From Escherichia coli (GTDB lineage: Bacteria > Pseudomonadota > Gammaproteobacteria > Enterobacterales > Enterobacteriaceae), in NCBI RefSeq assembly GCF_002854065.1, contig NZ_CP024147.1: DNA of 64,000 bases. One strand, 5' to 3'. Position numbers and translations under genes: made by a program. Below, piece after piece: positions 127 through 48,180 of the stretch. The notes beneath the pieces were generated by a model. The model made no database searches. It worked only from the letters and a program-made list of their open reading frames with translations, and was not told the DNA's origin. Numbering within the stretch: the stretch's first letter is position 1; the number at the start of each line of letters is the position of its first letter.

Positions 127-702
127 CTACGGCAGTGCTGGCCATTCAATATCCTGTGCAGTTGACGTATCAACACGGTTCAGCAACACCCGATACTTTT
201 TCCAGGCTTCCAGCAATGAGGTTTCTTCCTCCGTTGCGATTTCCAGATCTACAGCATCCTGAAGTGGCGCAATATGCTCACTGGCTACCTGCATCAGGCT
301 GTTTTTTGTTTCTTCCGCCTCCCGGATCCGGAACAGTTTTTCTGCTTCTGCATCTTTCACCCAGGCTGTGCCGTTCCACTTCTGAAACTCCCCTTCCGGC
401 GATAACCAGGTAACATTTTCCGGTAACGGACCGAGTTCAGAAATAAATAACGCGTCCCCTGACGCTACGTCATAAACCGTTTTACCCCGATGGTCTTCAA
501 CGAGATGCCACGATGCCTCATCACTGTTGAAAACAGCCACAAAGCCAGCAGGAATATCTGGCGGTGCAATATCGGTACTGTTTGCTGGCAGACCTGTATG
601 AGGCGGAATATATGCATCACCTTCACCAATAAATTCATTAGTTCCGGCCAGCAGATTATAAATTTTTATGGTCCGTGGTTGTTCACTCATTCTGAATGCC
701 AT
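127..702 (-). CDS. phage tail fibre assembly protein (Tfa family)
   Basis: 191-aa ORF; recognised as lambdoid Tfa; sits immediately 3' of the tail-fibre fragment. Confidence 0.8.
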
Positions 703-1271: not shown

Positions 1272-1406
1272 CTTACGGGCAGAAGGTATTCACGCAGGGA
1301 AAATATCTTTCCCCCTCCGGTGTTCTCACCACGAAGCCGCACGACTCCGCTGGCGCACATCGCCGGGCGTGCGCCAGAATCGCTGATTCTGTCTCTGTCA
1401 TGGGAT

Positions 1407-2444: not shown

Positions 2445-4648
2445 TACCGATATGCTCCACTTAACCGACCACCATCACGGGCCTGCTGTTGCATAAAGTC
2501 CGCTGCCGCTTTTTTCCCAAGGTCATAAACCACCTTCAGGGCAGCCGGACCTATCTGCCCGTTCGTGCCATCGTTATTGATCTCGATGTTGTACTGCGGG
2601 GCAAACATCGCCATACCTGAACCACCAATATCCGCCACAACCCCCAGCTTACCGTCAGCACCACGACGCAGTGGCAGAATGGCTTCAGGTCCAGCTTCCC
2701 CCATCACACCCGCGCCTTTTGCAAAAGCAAAAAACGTCGGACGGTTAACCACCGTGCCACTGTAACGACTCAAATCAGCAGACTGATAAATCCCCCCATT
2801 GGCATTCAGGGAAAGGCTGCTGAGATCAAATCCCAGTACACTGCCAATCCCTTTTATCGATTTCATCATGGTTGCCTGCGCCAGGATTTTCGCCATATCT
2901 GACAGCACCGAAGAGGTGAAGGATTTGAAGTTGAGTTTGCCGGTAGTGACAAAAGTTGCCAGGCCATTTCCCATGTTGCTGAAGGCTGATGAGAACACCT
3001 GTTCTGCTGTTCCTGCCGTATTGTCTGCATCCACGGTAAAATCCTGAAATGCACGCAGGACTCCGTTTTTCCAGTTACCCTGCACAACTTCAAGCTGTTG
3101 CCAGTAACGGCGATTCTCATTCAGTTGTCGGTTCAGGCTCTCCGTCAGCGCCTGCTCGGCCTTTCTGTAGTCATCCGTGTTATATGTCCCTTTCTGCTCA
3201 CTATCCCGCCTCAACTGCTCCAGCTGTTGCTGGTATTTCTGGCGAAGACTCAGTTGTACCTGATATCGCTGCCGCTGCTGATCACCCATACCCACCGTGG
3301 CGATATCCAGGTCATGTTGCTGACGCTGAGCGCGCTCTTCTTCAGCCAGTTGACTGGTCAGCTGAATTGTTTTTTTCTTCAGATCGTTGAGTGCCGTCTG
3401 TTTCTGAAGCTCCTGCTGTTTTACATCCAGCAGCGTCAGTGCCTGAATCAGTTCATCTTTACGGGCCAGCACACTCTTTTCATCTGCCGTCAGTTTTTTC
3501 CCGTCCAGATCGCTGATGCGCTGCTGCAGAGCCAGAAGCTGTTTATGCGCTTCTGTCATCTTTTCAGTGGCAATGCCTGCTGACTGTCTTGCAGCAGCAA
3601 TCTGTCCTTCCACCTGTGCCTGTTGCTGACTGTACTGCAGCAATAACCGGGTGGCCTCATCATTACGGGGTTCGCGTGTTTTTTTCTTACCGGATGCCAG
3701 GGCTTTCTCGTAACGTTCATTTTCACGTTGTATCGCCGCATCCCTGACAGCCTGATCGGCGTACTGCATGGCATTAATACGCGCAATTTCACGCTGATGT
3801 CGTGCTGCTTCCGTTTCATTCATCCGGTTCAGTGCAGCATTTTCAGCATTACGGCGTTTCTGTTGCTCCTGATAATTCCGCTCTGCCTGCTCTTTTGCAT
3901 CCTGCAAATCCTTCTGGCGTTTTTTCTCCTGAAGCTCGTTAAGACGCTGCTGATCGTACTCAACCTGAGAAGATGATGCCGTCCAGGGGAGTCTTTTCAC
4001 CCGCGACACTTTCTCCTGTAAAGCGGAAATCTGTTCATCCAGCGAGTCTTCACGACCAATATTCATGGCCGCATCCCAGAAACGACTCCATAAATCAGAC
4101 AGATACTTCAGCGTACTGCCCAGCGCATTGAGGTTATTATCAATATCCGCAGTACGCCGACCGGTTTCCTCTGCCAGTGCAGACATGGCTATCCGTGCCG
4201 CATCACTGGACCGCCCCTGTTCCCCAAGGACGCGTATCTGTTCAAGCTGAGTGGCAGTAAGAAAATGCAGCTCATTGTCCAGAGCCTTCGCGGCATTTAC
4301 AGGATCATCCTTCAGCCGCTTAAACTGATTTATGGTATCGCTGACCGACTGGCCAACCGATCGCTCCATCTGTGCGGCAGCTCTCGCCACCATACGGGAT
4401 GGATCATGAACAGAGTCTGCTGCCTCATGCTTCACACTAAACAGGGCTGGCCCGACATGGTGCAGGGCGTAAACGGGGTTCCCCCTGACAGTCGCAGCCA
4501 CAGGAGTGTTGGCCGCGAGGAGCCGTTTTTTTACTGTGTCCCGGTGAAGCCCAAAGGCCTCAGCGATTTTAAAAACACTCCAGTAATAAGCATCACCGAT
4601 CCCGCTCACATTTGACATAAGCAACTCCATCTGGCAGGTGAAAATCAT
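2444..4648 (-). CDS. tail tape-measure protein (lambda H-like C-terminal two thirds) with a divergent, possibly Nu1/small-terminase-derived N-terminus
   Basis: 734-aa ORF; C-terminus ...INNDGTNGQIGPAALK...RDGG resembles lambda H; N-terminal ~170 aa has an HTH-like segment; ATG at 4648. Confidence 0.65.
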   Translation of the reverse strand: MIFTCQMELLMSNVSGIGDAYYWSVFKIAEAFGLHRDTVKKRLLAANTPVAATVRGNPVYALHHVGPALFSVKHEAADSVHDPSRMVARAAAQMERSVGQSVSDTINQFKRLKDDPVNAAKALDNELHFLTATQLEQIRVLGEQGRSSDAARIAMSALAEETGRRTADIDNNLNALGSTLKYLSDLWSRFWDAAMNIGREDSLDEQISALQEKVSRVKRLPWTASSSQVEYDQQRLNELQEKKRQKDLQDAKEQAERNYQEQQKRRNAENAALNRMNETEAARHQREIARINAMQYADQAVRDAAIQRENERYEKALASGKKKTREPRNDEATRLLLQYSQQQAQVEGQIAAARQSAGIATEKMTEAHKQLLALQQRISDLDGKKLTADEKSVLARKDELIQALTLLDVKQQELQKQTALNDLKKKTIQLTSQLAEEERAQRQQHDLDIATVGMGDQQRQRYQVQLSLRQKYQQQLEQLRRDSEQKGTYNTDDYRKAEQALTESLNRQLNENRRYWQQLEVVQGNWKNGVLRAFQDFTVDADNTAGTAEQVFSSAFSNMGNGLATFVTTGKLNFKSFTSSVLSDMAKILAQATMMKSIKGIGSVLGFDLSSLSLNANGGIYQSADLSRYSGTVVNRPTFFAFAKGAGVMGEAGPEAILPLRRGADGKLGVVADIGGSGMAMFAPQYNIEINNDGTNGQIGPAALKVVYDLGKKAAADFMQQQARDGGRLSGAYR

Positions 4649-4798
4649 GTTTATTTATATATTTCAATTAATTGCAAACTGGTCTAATGACAGGGAGAAA
4701 AAAATATTGTACAGGTGAAAAGAGAAATAACTTTTAATTATCAATAAATTACCAAACATGCTGCCGCCGCCATGGAAATGCAAAAACTAGCCTTTTTC

Positions 4799-4818
4799 CG
4801 CGACGCTCCCGCCCCGTG
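4799..4818 (-). other. cos-like site (candidate cosN region)
   Basis: Minus strand reads ACGGGGCGGGAGCGTCGCGG, close to lambda cosN ACGGGGCGGCGACCTCGCGG as recalled; ~150 bp upstream of the ORF start at 4648, inside a GC-rich island. Confidence 0.4.
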
Positions 4819-4995
4819 GCAGGGGCCCCCACCGGGAGGACCCGACAGCCTGACAGCCGTGACGAGCATCTGATACAGCGCTTTACATAATGGCATAGGA
4901 ATAATTCAGAAGGACATCACAGCATGCCCACACAAATTAGTGTGAGTGTCCTGTTTCTTCCTACGCACAGGACTGACGAGCATGAGGGGAAAATA

Positions 4996-5163
4996 TGCGA
5001 ACCATAAATGCCTCATCTTCAGCAATGCAGCCGGCATCCGAACAGGACGATATTGTAAATTCACCTAATTACGAGGACATTGCAGTAGTTGAATTGCAGC
5101 TCTGTATTAGCCTGACAGTGACAGAATGCGATACTGACTCTGTCACAGGTGAAATAGTTTGAA
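4996..5163 (+). CDS. hypothetical small protein (55 aa)
   Basis: ATG preceded by GAGGGG at Shine-Dalgarno spacing; below the ORF-track cutoff; no recognised homology. Confidence 0.25.
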
Positions 5164-5182
5164 TGATTAGCAGTTATGGTGC

Positions 5183-5389
5183 TCAGTCAACCACCAGGGA
5201 ATAATCCTTCGAATTCTTATCGTGCTTCACCAACGCTGCCTCAATTGCCCTGAATGCTTCCAGAGACACCTGATGTTCTATACATGCAATTACAACATCC
5301 GGGTAACTCATAGAAATGGTGCTATTAAGCATATTTTTTACACGAATCAGATCCAACGAGAGTTCATCAGCAGATTGTTCTTTATTCAT
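5183..5389 (-). CDS. hypothetical prophage protein (68 aa)
   Basis: ATG start with GGAG Shine-Dalgarno 7 nt upstream; divergent from the DUF1398 gene. Confidence 0.5.
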
Positions 5390-5689
5390 TTTGTCGCTCC
5401 ATGCGTTTGCTCGTCATCTAGCGGTTAAAATATTACTTCAAATCTTTCTGCATAAAAGAGGAAAAGTATGAAAGTTTGAGTACATCGACCTTACATACAT
5501 CTGTCGGTTGCATATCCCTCCTGGATGCCAGCAAGGCTCAACTTTGTTACGCAATCAACACTATTCATTAAAAACAGGCTTAATATTTGACATAAATCAT
5601 CAACAAAACACAAAGAGGTCAGACCAGATTGAAACAATAAACACGATAATGCAAACTACGCGCCATCGTATCACATGGAAGGTTAACCA

Positions 5690-6100
5690 ATGGCTCAGGC
5701 TGCCATTTTTAAAGAAATATTCGATCAAGTGCGTAAAGATTTAAACTGTGAATTATTTTATTCTGAGCTAAAACGTCACAATGTCTCACTTTATATTTAC
5801 TATTTAGCCACAGATAATATTCACATTGTGTTAGAAAACGACAACATAGTGTTAGTAAAAGGACTCAAAAAGGTTGTAAATGTTAAATTCTCCAGAAACA
5901 AACATCTTATAGAGACCTCCTATAATAAGTTGAAATCAAAAGAAATCACATTTCAACAATACAGGGATAATCTTGCTAAAGCAGGAGTTTTCCGATGGGT
6001 TACAAATATCCAGGAACACCAAAGATATTACTATGCCTTTGATAACTCATTACTATTTACTGAAAGCATCCAGAAAACTACACAGATCTTACCACGCTAA
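5690..6100 (+). CDS. ydfO: DUF1398-family prophage protein (YdfO-like)
   Basis: 136-aa ORF, ATG with GGAAGG Shine-Dalgarno; position between the cos region and gnsB. Confidence 0.6.
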
Positions 6101-6251
6101 ACCATAACGTCCGGCTTCTCTCACTCCTGAGCCGGACTGCATTGGTTTAATAAAAACCATCAACAATTGTGATTTAGATATTCGGAACCATTCAAATATA
6201 ACAAAACCCCGTAAAAACGAGGTTTATGGATAAATTTTATTATTGAATACA

Positions 6252-6425
6252 TCAGATTAAATTAATCTTGACATCATAGCTTTCAAGACCCGTCATTTTT
6301 TCCCGTGCGGTAAACTGAATACTGGTAACTTCTTTCCCGGTCTTTTTCTTAAGTTCAATAATTTTTTTTGTTATATATTCAGAAATATCTGCTTCTGCTT
6401 TTGTTTTTAAGTCTTCAATATTCAT
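6252..6425 (-). CDS. gnsB: GnsB-family small protein (57 aa)
   Basis: Manual translation MNIEDLKTKAEADISEYITKKIIELKKKTGKEVTSIQFTAREKMTGLESYDVKINLI; missed by the ORF track because it is under 60 aa. Confidence 0.75.
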   Translation of the reverse strand: MNIEDLKTKAEADISEYITKKIIELKKKTGKEVTSIQFTAREKMTGLESYDVKINLI

Positions 6426-6596
6426 CATTTCCTCTTTTAGTCTGTTATGACTTTCCAGTTACACAGTAAATCGATTATATGGTGCAAACGTGTAAAAGAT
6501 AAGATGAAAAATCGCAATAATCAACATACGATAGTCTAAATTTTACACAAACAGACAAAGAGAATTTTCCTGAATTATCAATGCAATAGCATCAAA

Positions 6597-6752
6597 TCAA
6601 CTCAAGAGCCTTATTGCTGCTTCCAGAATTTCTTCTGAAGTAACATGTCGATCCGCGGCTACATAAATGACTTTATGATCTCCGGTCAGAGATGGAAACC
6701 CTGCGGCCATTACAGTAAGGTGTGTTTTTTCGCCATTTGGATATTCACGCAT
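6597..6752 (-). CDS. small prophage protein (51 aa; possibly YnfN-like)
   Basis: In-frame ATG giving MREYPNG...; longer alternatives start at 6827 (ATG) or 6869 (TTG); start uncertain. Confidence 0.4.
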   Translation of the reverse strand: MREYPNGEKTHLTVMAAGFPSLTGDHKVIYVAADRHVTSEEILEAAIRLLS

Positions 6753-6875
6753 GATGGTGTTAACTCCAGTCATCGCTGGCACTACCACTGCTGGTTCAGA
6801 GTTAAAAAAAACTATGATTTTTTTCATGATGTTACCGTAGTATGTGAGTATCCATCGAATAGACACCAAGCAAAA

Positions 6876-6900
6876 AAGCTCCCGAAGGAGCCTTCATTTT
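6876..6900 (-). terminator. rho-independent terminator-like hairpin
   Basis: Minus strand GCTCC-TTCG-GGAGC followed by TTTTTTGCTT. Confidence 0.45.
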
Positions 6901-7098
6901 CACTTTTTTAAATCCAACGACAGACGGCTGGCATTTAAGTATTGTGAAATATTATCAAATGTAATCATCATTGATTTACAAAAGATACATTTTGCCCCGA
7001 AAGGATTCATGTCAGAAACATCAAAAGATGATGTTCTATACTGGGAACCATGACAACACGGGCATCTAAAGTGAATATGGTTTGTAATATTGTCTACC

Positions 7099-7311
7099 TC
7101 AAAGCGCCACTACATGAACAGCGGCAGGACCTTTAGGTCCGTTCTCAATACCAAATTCAACTTCCTGATTCTCAGTTAATGTTTTGAAATCGTTGCTCTG
7201 AATTGCTGAGAAATGGACAAACACATCTTTGCTGCCATCTTTCGGCGTGATGAAACCAAAACCTTTTTCAGGGTTAAACCATTTCACTAAACCAGTCATT
7301 TTGTTAGACAT
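7099..7311 (-). CDS. cspI: cold shock protein CspI
   Basis: 70-aa CspA-family [26 protein letters not shown]... Confidence 0.9.
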
Positions 7312-7673
7312 AATTATTACCTTTTGAAGAAATTAGCCCTTGGGCAGAATGGTCCGAAAAAAAATATCAGAGAGAAAAACCAACAAGGAAATCCCAAGAG
7401 GTACAAATAATAAAATTATAACAATGACTGCTTCAGATAAATTTGTAACAAACCAGAACACCATTAACGCATGATTAACCACCCATAGCAAGGATTACTT
7501 TTGTAAAGAAAAACACAGCAATGAAAGAATAGCTTTATTTATTAATAAAACGTGTCATTCTGATTAAGACCTTTTATCTTACCCTTAAGATTTCAGGAAT
7601 TTTGGCTCATGGAAGAGTCCTTTTTATTTAAATTTTACATTCCGCGATGTAAATGTTCCGATTTAATATTACC

Positions 7674-9449: not shown

Positions 9450-9620
9450 ATGTCAGAACGTAAAGACTCAAAATCACGCCGTAATTATCTCGTTAAATGT
9501 TCCTGCCCAAACTGCACCCAAGAGTCAGAACACAGTTTTTCAAGAGTACAAAAAGGTGCCCTTTTGATCTGCCCTCATTGCAACAAAGTATTCCAGACAA
9601 ATCTTAAAGCTGCAGCCTGA
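9450..9620 (+). CDS. small zinc-ribbon protein (CxxC...CxxC), 56 aa
   Basis: ATG at 9450 with AGGAAA Shine-Dalgarno; cysteine pairs CPNC and CPHC; followed by a terminator. Confidence 0.5.
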   Translation: MSERKDSKSRRNYLVKCSCPNCTQESEHSFSRVQKGALLICPHCNKVFQTNLKAAA

Positions 9621-9702: not shown

Positions 9703-9983
9703 GAGATTGTGGTGCTTTTTGTGGGAGTCATCCACTTACGCACTTTGTTTTGCCATGCCAGCAGTTAGCTTCTGCTGTAAAACTATTCATGCCGCAAACC
9801 TGCACTTCACCACAATGGTTAGCATACTTTTCCTGATTAAGATTTTGCCAAATATGCTGGCCATTGTTTCATGTATTGGACCTCCTTAATTTTTATTAAA
9901 GAAATCCAATATTCACTACTCTGTCCGTATCTCTACTCAGGCATCAGCCTTCTTCGTTATCGTATACAGACGAGCGATGAATT

Positions 9984-10199
9984 TTAATCAGTAATGATGA
10001 CATTTGCTGCTGCAGGACCTTTAGCACCACTCTCTATAGAGAAGGTAACCTTTTGACCTTCAAATAAGGTTCGATAATTATCATTCTGAATCGCAGAAAA
10101 ATGCACAAACACATCTTTACTACCATCAACAGGAGAAATAAAGCCGAAACCTTTATCAGCGTTAAACCATTTTACTAAACCAGTCATTTTATTTGACAT
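9984..10199 (-). CDS. cspB: cold shock protein CspB
   Basis: 71-aa CspA-family [26 protein letters not shown]... Confidence 0.9.
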
Positions 10200-10509
10200 T
10201 CTACATTCCTTAACTTGAGCCTTTCGGCATAAATGGTTTGCATAACAGAAACGACTTCGTACTTAATTGGAGAGACTCAAAGAAGGAATAAGTGAATAAC
10301 ACCTGAAATGAGAACTGCTTTAGTAAACTACTTCGTATATCGTCTGTTCTTCAAACCGACGCAGTCATTAACTCATAGTTGAACATATGAAGCAATGTTT
10401 ATTTTAGACATCCAGCCACCTTCAACCCTATCAAAAAAGTAGTTTTCTCCAGGAACGTGTGTATGGTGCACCAGGTTATCAGTATTAAGGAGTTTTTCTG
10501 TCCCCTAAA

Positions 10510-10874: not shown

Positions 10875-12508
<1,634 letters not shown>

Positions 12509-32431: not shown

Positions 32432-32854
32432 AAAATAAGTCCGGACTGCGGTAAATACCCGTCCGGACTTATTGCCTGCTCAAACCAACGTTAATAGCCA
32501 TCCTAAAATAGACGAAGCGCCAGCCAATTCCCGCAGCGCGTCTAGCGTCATCAGGATTATAAGTACCCAAATAAACGGATTCATTTTGCTGTGTGTCATT
32601 TATTACTGATGCGCAGTTATTCTACCGCTTTGTAAGTAGTAAAATAGTTAACCCGATCAAGACTACTATTATTGGTAGCTAAATTTCCCTTAAGTCACAA
32701 TACGTTATTATCAATGCTGTAATTTATTCAGCGTTTGTACATATCGTTACACGCTGAAACCAACCACTCACGGAAGTCTGCCATTCCCAGGGATATAGTT
32801 ATTTCAACGGCCCCGCAGTGGGGTTAAATGAAAAAACAAATTGAGGGTATGACA

Positions 32855-33163
32855 ATGAAAAAAGTATTAGCTCTGGTTGTTGCCGCTGCTATGGGTCTGT
32901 CTTCTGCCGCCTTTGCTGCAGAGACTGCGACCACACCTGCTCCGACTGCGACGACCACCAAAGCAGCGCCGGCGAAAACTACACATCATAAAAAACAGCA
33001 TAAAGCAGCACCTGCCCAGAAAGCGCAGGCGGCTAAAAAGCATCATAAAAATACGAAAGCTGAACAGAAAGCCCCTGAACAAAAAGCGCAGGCAGCGAAG
33101 AAACACGCCGGGAAACACAGCCATCAGCAACCGGCAAAACCTGCTGCACAACCCGCAGCGTAA
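32855..33163 (+). CDS. asr: acid shock protein Asr
   Basis: 102 aa from [14 protein letters not shown]; Lys/His/Ala-rich low-complexity body; GAGGGT Shine-Dalgarno. Confidence 0.85.
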
Positions 33164-33255
33164 GTTTTCAACAGTAATGCTGGCGCGCCCCCTCGCGCCT
33201 GAAAATTACGGTGCTAAGCGGGTAACGTTTAGCACCGTCTTTAGCGGAGGGTAGT

Positions 33256-33339
33256 ATGGTGGGCCGTTATCGCTTTGAGTTCATTCTTATCATCCTTATT
33301 TTATGCGCACTGATTGCCGCTCGTTTTTATCTTTCCTGA
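33256..33339 (+). CDS. ydgU: small membrane protein YdgU (27 aa)
   Basis: MVGRYRFEFILIILILCALIAARFYLS with GGAGGG Shine-Dalgarno; below ORF-track cutoff. Confidence 0.6.
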   Translation: MVGRYRFEFILIILILCALIAARFYLS

Positions 33340-33438
33340 CTGTAGTTATCTGATTTTACTCCCACTTTCATCCCGTCCCGTCTATAGTATTTATGAGGGT
33401 TTGCTTTTAATAATCATAATTACCCACCAGAGTGTGAT

Positions 33439-34980: not shown

Positions 34981-35391
34981 TGTCCTTCTCCTGCAAGAGA
35001 ATTATTTTAATTTTCGCTTAATTCAGCGAAACCAAAGTAAAGTGGTCAAGCCCCGCGCTTAGCGCAAGCTTTGGCAGAAGAAAGGACTAAAGCGCGTTGC
35101 GCCAGTGCTGCTCACCTACGAGCAAGATAGTGGATGAGGTACGAAGATGGGTAAATGTAGAAAATAACGTCCTGAACAAATTGTCCATAATATTACAATT
35201 ATCCGCAGTGTTGCTTCTCGTCATCGCGGATGATAATTGTCCTCGGTAGTTGAACACGCCTGATTTGTATCATAGCTTAAGAATTAACTCAAAATATTTT
35301 CACTTCTTTACCTGAGCGGTTTGATTTTCGTTATGATGACGGAGCGAAAAAGACATTATTATTAGCAAAGGAAGAAAAAACGGGGACAAGC

Positions 35392-43637: not shown

Positions 43638-44357
43638 ATGAACACTATCGTATTTGTGGAAGATGATGCGGAAGTCGGTTCACTGATTGCCGCGTACCTG
43701 GCAAAACATGATATGCAGGTTACCGTAGAGCCGCGCGGCGACCAGGCCGAAGAAACCATTTTGCGAGAAAATCCGGATTTGGTGTTACTCGACATCATGC
43801 TACCAGGCAAGGACGGCATGACCATTTGTCGTGATTTACGCGCAAAGTGGTCCGGACCGATTGTTCTTCTAACCTCTCTCGATAGCGATATGAACCACAT
43901 CCTGGCACTGGAAATGGGTGCCTGCGACTATATTCTCAAAACGACGCCCCCTGCTGTTTTGTTAGCGCGTTTACGTTTGCATTTGCGTCAGAATGAGCAA
44001 GCCACACTGACCAAAGGTCTTCAGGAAACGTCTCTGACTCCCTACAAAGCCCTGCATTTCGGCACGTTGACCATCGATCCCATCAACCGCGTAGTCACCC
44101 TGGCTAACACTGAAATCTCGCTCTCGACAGCTGATTTCGAATTATTGTGGGAATTAGCTACCCATGCCGGGCAAATCATGGACCGCGATGCATTGCTGAA
44201 AAATTTACGCGGCGTCAGTTATGACGGACTGGATCGTAGCGTGGACGTGGCTATTTCGCGGTTAAGAAAAAAACTGCTCGATAACGCCGCAGAACCTTAT
44301 CGCATTAAAACTGTGCGTAACAAAGGCTATCTTTTTGCGCCTCATGCATGGGAATAA
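43638..44357 (+). CDS. rstA: two-component response regulator RstA
   Basis: 239 aa from MNTIVFVEDD; OmpR-family; ORF-track start is extended. Confidence 0.9.
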   Translation: MNTIVFVEDDAEVGSLIAAYLAKHDMQVTVEPRGDQAEETILRENPDLVLLDIMLPGKDGMTICRDLRAKWSGPIVLLTSLDSDMNHILALEMGACDYILKTTPPAVLLARLRLHLRQNEQATLTKGLQETSLTPYKALHFGTLTIDPINRVVTLANTEISLSTADFELLWELATHAGQIMDRDALLKNLRGVSYDGLDRSVDVAISRLRKKLLDNAAEPYRIKTVRNKGYLFAPHAWE

Positions 44358-44360
44358 GCG

Positions 44361-45662
44361 ATGAAAAAACTGTTTATCCAGTTTTACCTGTTATTGTTTG
44401 TCTGCTTCCTTGTGATGTCTCTGCTGGTTGGGCTGGTGTACAAATTTACCGCCGAACGCGCGGGCAAACAGTCGCTGGATGATTTGATGAACAGTTCGCT
44501 GTATCTGATGCGCAGCGAATTGCGTGAGATCCCCCCACACGACTGGGGTAAGACGCTGAAAGAGATGGATTTAAATCTCTCTTTCGATCTGCGTGTCGAG
44601 CCACTGAGTAAATACCATCTTGATGATATTTCCATGCACCGACTGCGTGGCGGCGAAATTGTCGCCCTGGACGATCAGTACACGTTTTTGCAGCGTATCC
44701 CGCGCAGCCACTACGTGCTGGCAGTTGGTCCTGTTCCTTATCTTTATTATCTCCATCAGATGCGATTGCTGGATATCGCCCTGATCGCTTTTATTGCTAT
44801 TTCCCTCGCCTTTCCGGTGTTTATCTGGATGCGTCCGCACTGGCAGGATATGTTAAAACTGGAAGCAGCGGCGCAACGATTTGGCGATGGGCATCTCAAT
44901 GAACGTATCCACTTTGATGAGGGTTCGAGCTTTGAACGACTTGGTATCGCATTTAACCAGATGGCGGACAATATCAACGCCTTGATTGCCAGCAAAAAAC
45001 AGCTTATTGACGGTATCGCTCACGAACTGCGAACACCGTTAGTGCGCCTGCGTTATCGACTGGAGATGAGCGATAACCTGAGCGCCGCCGAATCCCAGGC
45101 GTTGAATCGTGATATCAGTCAACTTGAAGCTTTAATTGAAGAGCTGCTGACTTATGCCCGACTCGATCGCCCACAAAACGAGCTTCATCTTAGCGAACCA
45201 GACCTGCCGTTGTGGCTATCAACGCATCTGGCAGATATTCAGGCAGTAACGCCCGATAAAACGGTACGGATAAAAACGCTCATGCAAGGCCATTATGCGG
45301 CGTTGGATATGCGCTTAATGGAGCGCGTGCTGGATAATTTGCTCAATAACGCCCTGCGCTACTGCCATTCAACGGTTGAAACCAGCCTGCTACTGTCGGG
45401 GAATAGAGCGACATTAATTGTTGAGGATGATGGCCCAGGGATTGCCCCAGAAAACCGCGAACATATCTTTGAACCTTTTGTTCGCCTCGATCCCAGCCGG
45501 GATCGCTCAACCGGCGGCTGCGGGCTGGGGCTGGCAATTGTCCACTCTATAGCACTGGCAATGGGCGGTACGGTTAATTGTGACACCAGCGAACTGGGTG
45601 GTGCCCGCTTCTCGTTTAGCTGGCCGTTATGGCATAACATCCCGCAATTTACCTCTGCTTGA
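44361..45662 (+). CDS. rstB: two-component sensor histidine kinase RstB
   Basis: 433-aa ORF with HAMP and H-box (HELRTP). Confidence 0.9.
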   Translation: MKKLFIQFYLLLFVCFLVMSLLVGLVYKFTAERAGKQSLDDLMNSSLYLMRSELREIPPHDWGKTLKEMDLNLSFDLRVEPLSKYHLDDISMHRLRGGEIVALDDQYTFLQRIPRSHYVLAVGPVPYLYYLHQMRLLDIALIAFIAISLAFPVFIWMRPHWQDMLKLEAAAQRFGDGHLNERIHFDEGSSFERLGIAFNQMADNINALIASKKQLIDGIAHELRTPLVRLRYRLEMSDNLSAAESQALNRDISQLEALIEELLTYARLDRPQNELHLSEPDLPLWLSTHLADIQAVTPDKTVRIKTLMQGHYAALDMRLMERVLDNLLNNALRYCHSTVETSLLLSGNRATLIVEDDGPGIAPENREHIFEPFVRLDPSRDRSTGGCGLGLAIVHSIALAMGGTVNCDTSELGGARFSFSWPLWHNIPQFTSA

Positions 45663-45704: not shown

Positions 45705-48067
<2,363 letters not shown>

Positions 48068-48180
48068 GGCCTGCTCCTCACCTGATTAATTTTTTCTTTC
48101 TGCTTTGCTTTCGTTAAGCAACTTTTAGCTCACTCATTATTTACCATTTGATAACAAATGTTTGGTCTTTCGTGCCATAT

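Follow-up and report, generated by a model that had tools for sequence, protein, structure and literature searches.

Four short open reading frames in a chromosome segment of Escherichia coli: the known genes ydgU/samT and gnsB, an intact ynfN and a probable chance frame near a prophage cos junction

Results

The stretch of DNA analysed here (64,000 nucleotides, in the following called the window) is a segment of an E. coli chromosome that leads from a decayed Qin-like lambdoid prophage through asr-ydgU-ydgD-mdtIJ to rstAB. For the first 25 kb, a colinear complete genome was not found in the collection (the best coverage was 88%), which points to an E. coli chromosome carrying its own variant of the decayed prophage. 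Positions 4600-7100 match Qin-like lambdoid prophage DNA and hold a ybcW-like gene, DUF1398 (ydfO), gnsB, ynfN, ynfR, ynfQ/ymcF and cspI. The asr-ydgU-ydgD stretch (1.6 kb around position 33256) is present at an identity of at least 95% in 5422 of the 5426 complete E. coli genomes, where it is annotated as asr, 'small membrane protein YdgU', ydgD and mdtI. A scan of the loci of the four short ORFs treated below (ydgU, gnsB, a 51-aa ORF and a 55-aa ORF) against Rfam revealed no known RNA family; elsewhere in the window, the matches above the gathering score comprised IS009 (161..359, minus strand), the Hfq-binding sRNA isrC (11327..11449, plus strand) and the cspA-type thermoregulator 5' UTRs of cspI (7072..7457) and cspB (9968..10360), both on the minus strand.

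The gene ydgU, also named samT, occupies positions 33256..33339 on the plus strand and encodes a single-pass inner-membrane peptide of 27 aa. The initial annotation had described it as a 27-aa gene with a strong Shine-Dalgarno (SD) sequence, and this was borne out exactly: there is an ATG-initiated ORF of 27 codons (MVGRYRFEFILIILILCALIAARFYLS), and the SD sequence GGAGGG is found at 33246..33251 (+), its GGAGG standing 5 nt before the ATG. The product has the same sequence as RefSeq WP_000233090.1 ('small membrane protein YdgU') and scores 70.3 bits with the NCBIfam equivalog small_YdgU (NF052476; cutoff 24; aligned over 1-27 of 27) and 74.5 bits with PRK14758 (cutoff 66). In its layout, MVGRYRFE-FILIILILCALIAA-RFYLS, a basic N-terminus is followed by one hydrophobic helix, a pattern kept in nine genera. 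Directly upstream and in the same orientation lies asr (32855..33163, +), identified by annotation mapping, which encodes an acid-shock periplasmic protein and is the first gene of the acid-inducible asr-samT operon (PMC13425233, PMC11429745). Between the asr stop (33163) and the ydgU start (33256) there is a spacer of 92 nt; the published description of the operon gives it as 93 bp (PMC13425233). The gap from samT to ydgD measures 99-103 nt in all genera and 99 nt here (33340..33438).

Within Escherichia, other species retain both the 27-codon frame and the SD sequence, the latter without variation across seven Escherichia loci, and the four nucleotide differences from E. albertii all fall on third codon positions and are synonymous. 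Beyond Escherichia, we used ydgD orthologues as anchors to examine loci of Citrobacter, Salmonella, Enterobacter, Kosakonia, Kluyvera, Cronobacter, Leclercia and Siccibacter. Each of these eight genera has a ydgU/samT orthologue of 26-28 codons with a GGAG-type SD motif that starts 180-188 nt before ydgD (at about 1313..1401 of loci L028-L035), and in none of the eight (0/8) had it been called by the gene callers. The consensus over nine genera is MxRRYRFELILxxLILCALxAxxFYLx, with F7, E8, L11, L14, C17 and F24 invariant. A degenerate DNA pattern designed for ydgU had matches only in Escherichia and in one Bacteroidota MAG, the latter probably by chance. The order asr-then-samT also occurs in seven of the eight other genera; Cronobacter has kept ydgU and ydgD, with asr absent at the locus, so that a link of samT to ydgD may exist in addition to the one with asr.

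Flanking non-coding DNA is also highly conserved within Escherichia and a strong RNA structure lies directly upstream of ydgU, as might be expected if the frame were incidental and the conserved element were an RNA only (the asr 3' end or a ydgD leader). We give this explanation next to no credence, because the frame, its length of 26-28 codons and six residues have been kept in nine genera with upstream spacers of 74-207 nt, because the changes in E. albertii are exclusively synonymous, and because published data include ribosome footprints, epitope-tagged protein and complementation with samT alone. Thus, ydgU is a real gene for an already annotated, experimentally characterised E. coli membrane peptide, and there is nothing new in its presence here.

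The asr-ydgU spacer contains two hairpins on the plus strand. The first (33182..33199; GGCGCG-CCCCCU-CGCGCC, with a C-rich loop) is invariant in Escherichia and has altered stems in Citrobacter, Salmonella and Kosakonia. The second (ACGGUGCUAAGCG...CGUUUAGCACCGU; 33208..33238) is situated at the end of the spacer and folds with -22.7 kcal/mol (z = -3.9). Its core stem reads CGGCGCU/AGCGCCG in six genera and CGGUGCU/AGCACCG in E. coli, which is a compensatory change, and one more compensatory double change plus one G.U wobble were seen within Escherichia. In all seven genera that have asr, the spacer measures 74-174 nt and its end consists of a GC-rich hairpin, then a U- or pyrimidine-rich tract and then the samT SD sequence. 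A simple terminator scan flagged the hairpin at this position in Enterobacter and Kluyvera as an intrinsic terminator, with 6-7 T in a row. It left the hairpin unflagged in E. coli, Leclercia and Kosakonia; the last two have a loop that exceeds what the scan accepts, and E. coli has a degenerate U-tract behind the hairpin (GUCUUUAG). An alternative minimum-energy fold of the spacer pairs the element at 33182..33199 with the ydgU SD sequence. We rejected such a long-range anti-SD fold as a general feature, since Enterobacter, Kluyvera and Leclercia lack the C-rich element and there is better support for the local hairpins.

Upstream of asr, a putative RstA box (TACATATCGTTACA; 32738..32751, +) ends 103 nt before the asr ATG. 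It is the sole match without mismatch in the 64 kb to TACATNTNGTTACA, which we take to be the consensus of the RstA box. The genes of the corresponding two-component system lie some 10 kb downstream of samT: rstA (43638..44357, +), whose product is the response regulator that activates asr-samT, was mapped with 100% identity from an annotated genome, and rstB (44361..45662, +), placed by annotation mapping and intact in the window, encodes the sensor kinase that is the published partner of SamT (PMC13425233).

The second gene, gnsB, belongs to the GnsA/GnsB family and encodes 57 aa at 6252..6425 on the minus strand; the initial annotation had recognised a real gene of less than 60 aa with correct coordinates, leaving its strand unstated. 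GnsB matches Pfam PF08178 (GnsAB_toxin) at 5e-35 and 119.6 bits (gathering 27; aligned over 1-54 of 54) and the GnsA structures PDB 4XO1/4XO2 at 1e-19 to 3e-20. Compared with diverged prophage and phage copies, gnsB shows no indels, an excess of third-position changes and a dN/dS of 0.09-0.14. A slip of one base in the A8 run of gnsB (6360..6378, minus strand) has cut the gene short in strain 100416, the closest RefSeq genome; the gene is flagged as frameshifted in another genome (L005) and is intact in the window. [quoted passage not shown] The label 'addiction module toxin' of this family derives from the ymcE-gnsA pair, in which gnsA overlaps ymcE, the proposed antitoxin, whereas gnsB here follows ynfN after a gap of 171 nt. 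YnfN as a YmcE-like antitoxin of GnsB was considered and rejected, YnfN and YmcE being without similarity. Because the upstream ynfN is unrelated to YmcE, a toxin-antitoxin arrangement is not supported for gnsB by its context.

The third item, a 51-aa ORF at 6597-6752 that had been proposed as a separate gene, exists as an in-frame stretch from ATG to stop on the minus strand. It is, however, made up of the C-terminal 51 codons of ynfN, which in near-identical genomes is annotated by RefSeq in its intact form of 76 aa (6597..6827, -). Neither did it fall below the cutoff of the ORF track, as had been supposed: an ORF list with a 60-aa cutoff shows it as a TTG-initiated ORF of 90 aa at 6597..6869. 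The 51-aa form is that of K-12, where ynfN has T7 in place of the T8 of the window (codons 6-9; 6800..6812, -) and only the part from Met26 is left in frame; RefSeq flags this allele (L036 1698..1927) as frameshifted. The 51-aa YnfN of K-12 is thus a remnant that goes back to a homopolymer frameshift from T8 to T7. The family is found in lambdoid prophages and in the phages Tritos, 2H10 and PHB10. YnfN of the window is 100% identical to the translations from phages Tritos and PhiR42_1, and five others share 93% identity with it. Scans of YnfN against Pfam and NCBIfam gave no match, and in the literature we found nothing on the start site of ynfN; in K-12, ynfN RNA is co-induced with cspI and ynfQ.

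Could the functional product in the window nevertheless be a protein of 51 aa that starts at Met26 (6752), with the 25 codons upstream serving as an untranslated leader? The K-12 lineage survives with only the Met26 part in frame, a GGAG motif 11 nt upstream of Met26 might allow some internal initiation, and the annotation of phage Tritos likewise uses the 51-aa form. We regard this as unlikely. The most distant homologue, that of phage PHB10, which is 59% identical over residues 1-75, is conserved at the protein level in residues 1-25 and has Leu at position 26, and tblastn of YnfN against phages aligned residues 1-76 in all eight matches. The N-terminal 25 codons have a dN/dS of 0.27-0.28 (compared with 0.09-0.2 for the C-terminal 51 codons and gnsB), the treatment of the K-12 allele as frameshifted by RefSeq also speaks against a 51-aa product, and so does the position of the 76-aa start, 4 nt past the ynfR stop in the tightly packed cold-shock array cspI-ynfQ-ynfR-ynfN. 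This position also suggests translational coupling. We therefore retain the intact 76-aa form of ynfN.

The fourth item had been given as a 55-aa ORF at 4996-5163. An ORF with an SD-like motif (GAGGGG at 4984..4989, 5 nt upstream of the ATG) is indeed present, one base away from that position (4995..5162, +), but it fails every test of coding constraint. Among the copies examined, the ATG is replaced by ACG in the class with about 92% identity (L004-L006), and in the seven loci with 84-92% identity each copy carries one or two frameshifting one-base indels and 1-6 premature stops. The substitutions show no preference for a codon position (e.g., 2/6/4 or 5/7/4) and dN/dS is close to 1 (0.7-1.6), whereas the same test gave 0-0.28 for the controls gnsB, ynfN and cspI and 0-0.5 in most comparisons of neighbouring real genes. 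There is no Pfam or NCBIfam match. The relatives in protein databases are close, restricted to E. coli, named 'hypothetical proteins' and inconsistent in length (38-89 aa), and the commonest of them (P0026; 838 contigs) is a chimera that starts in a different frame and then switches into that of the 55-aa ORF. Several other relatives are frame-switch chimeras as well, and together with the inconsistent lengths we took this as evidence against a gene. No annotation exists on this strand in the RefSeq or phage records examined (including Tritos and lambda), and even the heavily auto-annotated phage HannyBb has only opposite-strand ORFs in the region.

A very young, lineage-restricted small-protein gene of the prophage, antisense to the late operon, would be compatible with the GAGGGG motif in front of the ATG and with the intact frame in copies of at least 98% identity (L003 and L018, among them phage Tritos). 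Some annotators other than RefSeq do label the ORF as a 'hypothetical protein', and other lambdoid prophages carry a YlcI/YnfO-family gene in the same orientation, a short distance upstream of the homologous DNA. Against such a gene stand the loss of the ATG, the indels and stops in all seven loci of 92% identity or less, the dN/dS values, the chimeric nature of P0026 with the lack of a family match in Pfam and NCBIfam, the unannotated plus strand in Tritos, lambda and the RefSeq records, and the finding that 15 of the 17 short ORFs with an SD-like motif in the window are non-genes. Taken together, these observations make a young gene very improbable. Judged from sequence comparison, the 55-aa ORF has not been conserved as a gene; it is apparently a chance ORF in the non-coding spacer that extends from the ybcW-like gene to cos.

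The cos junction of the prophage was placed at 4803..4814 (-), where the left end of phage Tritos begins (GGGCGGGAGCGT), and the two ends of the linear packaged Tritos genome abut at window position 4814|4815. The left end of Tritos presumably resembles the cohesive end of lambda. This puts the 55-aa ORF at a distance of 180-350 bp from cos, within the spacer that follows the convergent ybcW-like gene. The latter (68 aa; 5183..5389, -; annotated as hypothetical protein/YbcW) has a dN/dS of 0.3-0.9 and no indels. The right two-thirds of the 55-aa ORF (window 5037..5182) are homologous to lambda about 47945-48090 with 84-89% identity, a region between the ybcW-like orf and cos of lambda that is free of annotated features in J02459. 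Lambda is unlike the window in the left third of the ORF and in the type of cos and terminase, which here is Tritos-like with a DUF1441 small terminase. What is left of this small-terminase gene is no more than its first ~240 nt (4618 down to 4381), fused to a remnant of the tape-measure gene, which implies that the head genes and most of the tail genes have been deleted. Just downstream of the ybcW-like gene and inside the 55-aa ORF, an inverted repeat of 8 bp (GTGACAGA at 5118..5125 and TCTGTCAC at 5139..5146) is conserved in every lambdoid copy, that of lambda among them. We rejected the idea that it forms a structured RNA or a terminator, its predicted fold being no better than that of shuffled sequences (z = -0.37); it could instead be a protein-binding site.

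The weight of an SD-like motif was assessed over the whole window, which contains 424 ORFs of 20-59 aa when the first ATG is taken as the start, 17 of them with a 4-mer SD core. If the start may be any in-frame ATG, an SD-like 5-mer is found on 17 ORFs of 15-62 aa, and the only genes among these are gnsB and ydgU. Because the other 15 are non-genes, an SD-like motif on a short ORF is to be expected by chance several times per window. The proposal that four genes of less than 60 aa had been missed in the window is therefore half right: ydgU and gnsB are real and of that size, while ynfN exceeds it and the 55-aa ORF is attributed to chance. Nor are the real genes unassigned, since ydgU, gnsB and ynfN are all named in the RefSeq annotation of nearly identical genomes.

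Other small genes in the window were absent from the initial annotation or are of interest for their starts. The gene ynfR (6832..6897, -) encodes 21 aa identical to MKAPSGAFLLGVYSMDTHILR; in K-12, YnfR has been validated by SPA-tagging and is induced by cold shock (PMC6001520). It contains a premature stop in a prophage copy of ~89% identity (L014 996..1034) and in phage 2H10, and is thus poorly conserved despite its expression. The neighbouring ynfQ/ymcF-like gene (6900..7088, -) encodes a CxxC small protein of 62 aa according to its RefSeq annotation and a match to Pfam PF23641 (YmcF-like; 7e-32). Its RefSeq start is ATT (7086..7088, -), an unusual codon, and the translation opens with ITNHIHF. 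Three more annotated genes had been overlooked. The prophage gene ynfU (9450..9620, +) encodes a zinc-binding CxxC protein of 56 aa. A peptide of the KPN_01571 family (MNPFIWVLIILMTLDALRELAGASSILGWLLTLV; 34 aa; 32480..32584, -) lies between ynfM and asr; RefSeq genomes are inconsistent in giving it 34 or 23 aa, and the alignment to the family model begins at residue 1 of the longer version. Finally, ydgV (56 aa, GTG start; 35087..35257, -) is situated upstream of mdtJ; for this site the literature also describes MdtU, a regulatory upstream ORF.

Discussion

The analysis of the four short ORFs leads us to the following reading, which we consider about 90% probable: ydgU/samT and gnsB are known genes, ynfN is intact and encodes 76 aa, and the 55-aa ORF arose by chance. 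None of the genes is novel: ydgU/samT, gnsB and ynfN are already annotated, and for ydgU a function has been published. Three lessons may be of more general use. A motif that looks like an SD sequence is weak evidence for a gene when it precedes a short ORF. Gene models taken over from K-12 may mislead in other strains, because in K-12 ynfN is a frameshift remnant. And samT, although clearly present in each of the eight other enterobacterial genera examined, is still passed over there by gene finders.

The initial annotation had named ribosome profiling as a check; for ydgU, such data have already been published and show that it is translated (PMC10746267, PMC11429745). In ribosome footprints of K-12 at pH 4.4, ydgU was among the top three induced genes with a log2 fold change of 9.22 (PMC10746267), and it is one of 17 small proteins induced in Ribo-seq at low Mg2+, and for all of these but YoaI epitope tagging had already provided validation (PMC11429745). 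GFP-YdgU was localised to the membrane, and reporter fusions placed ydgU in the asr-ydgU operon and showed that it lacks its own promoter (PMC11429745). In July 2026 the gene received the name samT, when its product was described as a membrane peptide that binds to RstB, the kinase, and dampens signalling through RstB-RstA; this mechanism comes from one study, which used genetics and bacterial two-hybrid assays and in which PhoQ and EnvZ gave weaker two-hybrid signals (PMC13425233).

According to the published mechanism, RstA~P would activate the asr promoter at acid pH or low Mg2+, and SamT would insert into the inner membrane, its N-terminus facing the cytoplasm, bind RstB and limit the phosphotransfer to RstA, which would close a negative feedback loop (PMC13425233). 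As far as can be judged from the DNA, all parts of the circuit are present in the window, namely the putative RstA box, asr, samT with a strong RBS, and rstAB. The differential expression of asr and samT has been named as an open question; the study makes no mention of a terminator or of read-through, and neither the hairpin nor a link to ydgD is discussed in it (PMC13425233). In this context, the second hairpin of the spacer deserves attention. As it resembles a terminator and ends just before the RBS, samT might be reached by read-through of this hairpin, which would set a low ratio of SamT to Asr. Our tentative suggestion, which we hold with less than even confidence, is that the hairpin and the tract that follows it act as a leaky terminator or attenuator of asr and thereby set or regulate the SamT:Asr ratio, that the C-rich loop of the first hairpin or the pyrimidine tract could mask the SD sequence (in E. 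coli, Citrobacter and Salmonella), and that samT is perhaps functionally tied to ydgD. The terminator-like hairpin would then offer a testable handle on the balance between the opposing feedbacks of Asr and SamT on RstB-RstA.

Compared with YdgU/SamT of E. coli K-12, the window has the same 27 residues, the same spacers, a putative RstA box 5' of asr and rstAB nearby; we detected no difference, and it is the same gene in another strain. The nearest parallel among known systems is MgrB, an inhibitor of PhoQ with 47 aa: both MgrB and SamT are single-pass peptides under the control of a two-component system, bind their own kinase and exert negative feedback (PMC13425233). The two have no strong sequence similarity according to the authors of that study (PMC13425233). 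They also differ in their targets, as SamT acts on RstB and MgrB on PhoQ, and SamT, with only 27 aa, shares its operon with the positive modulator Asr.
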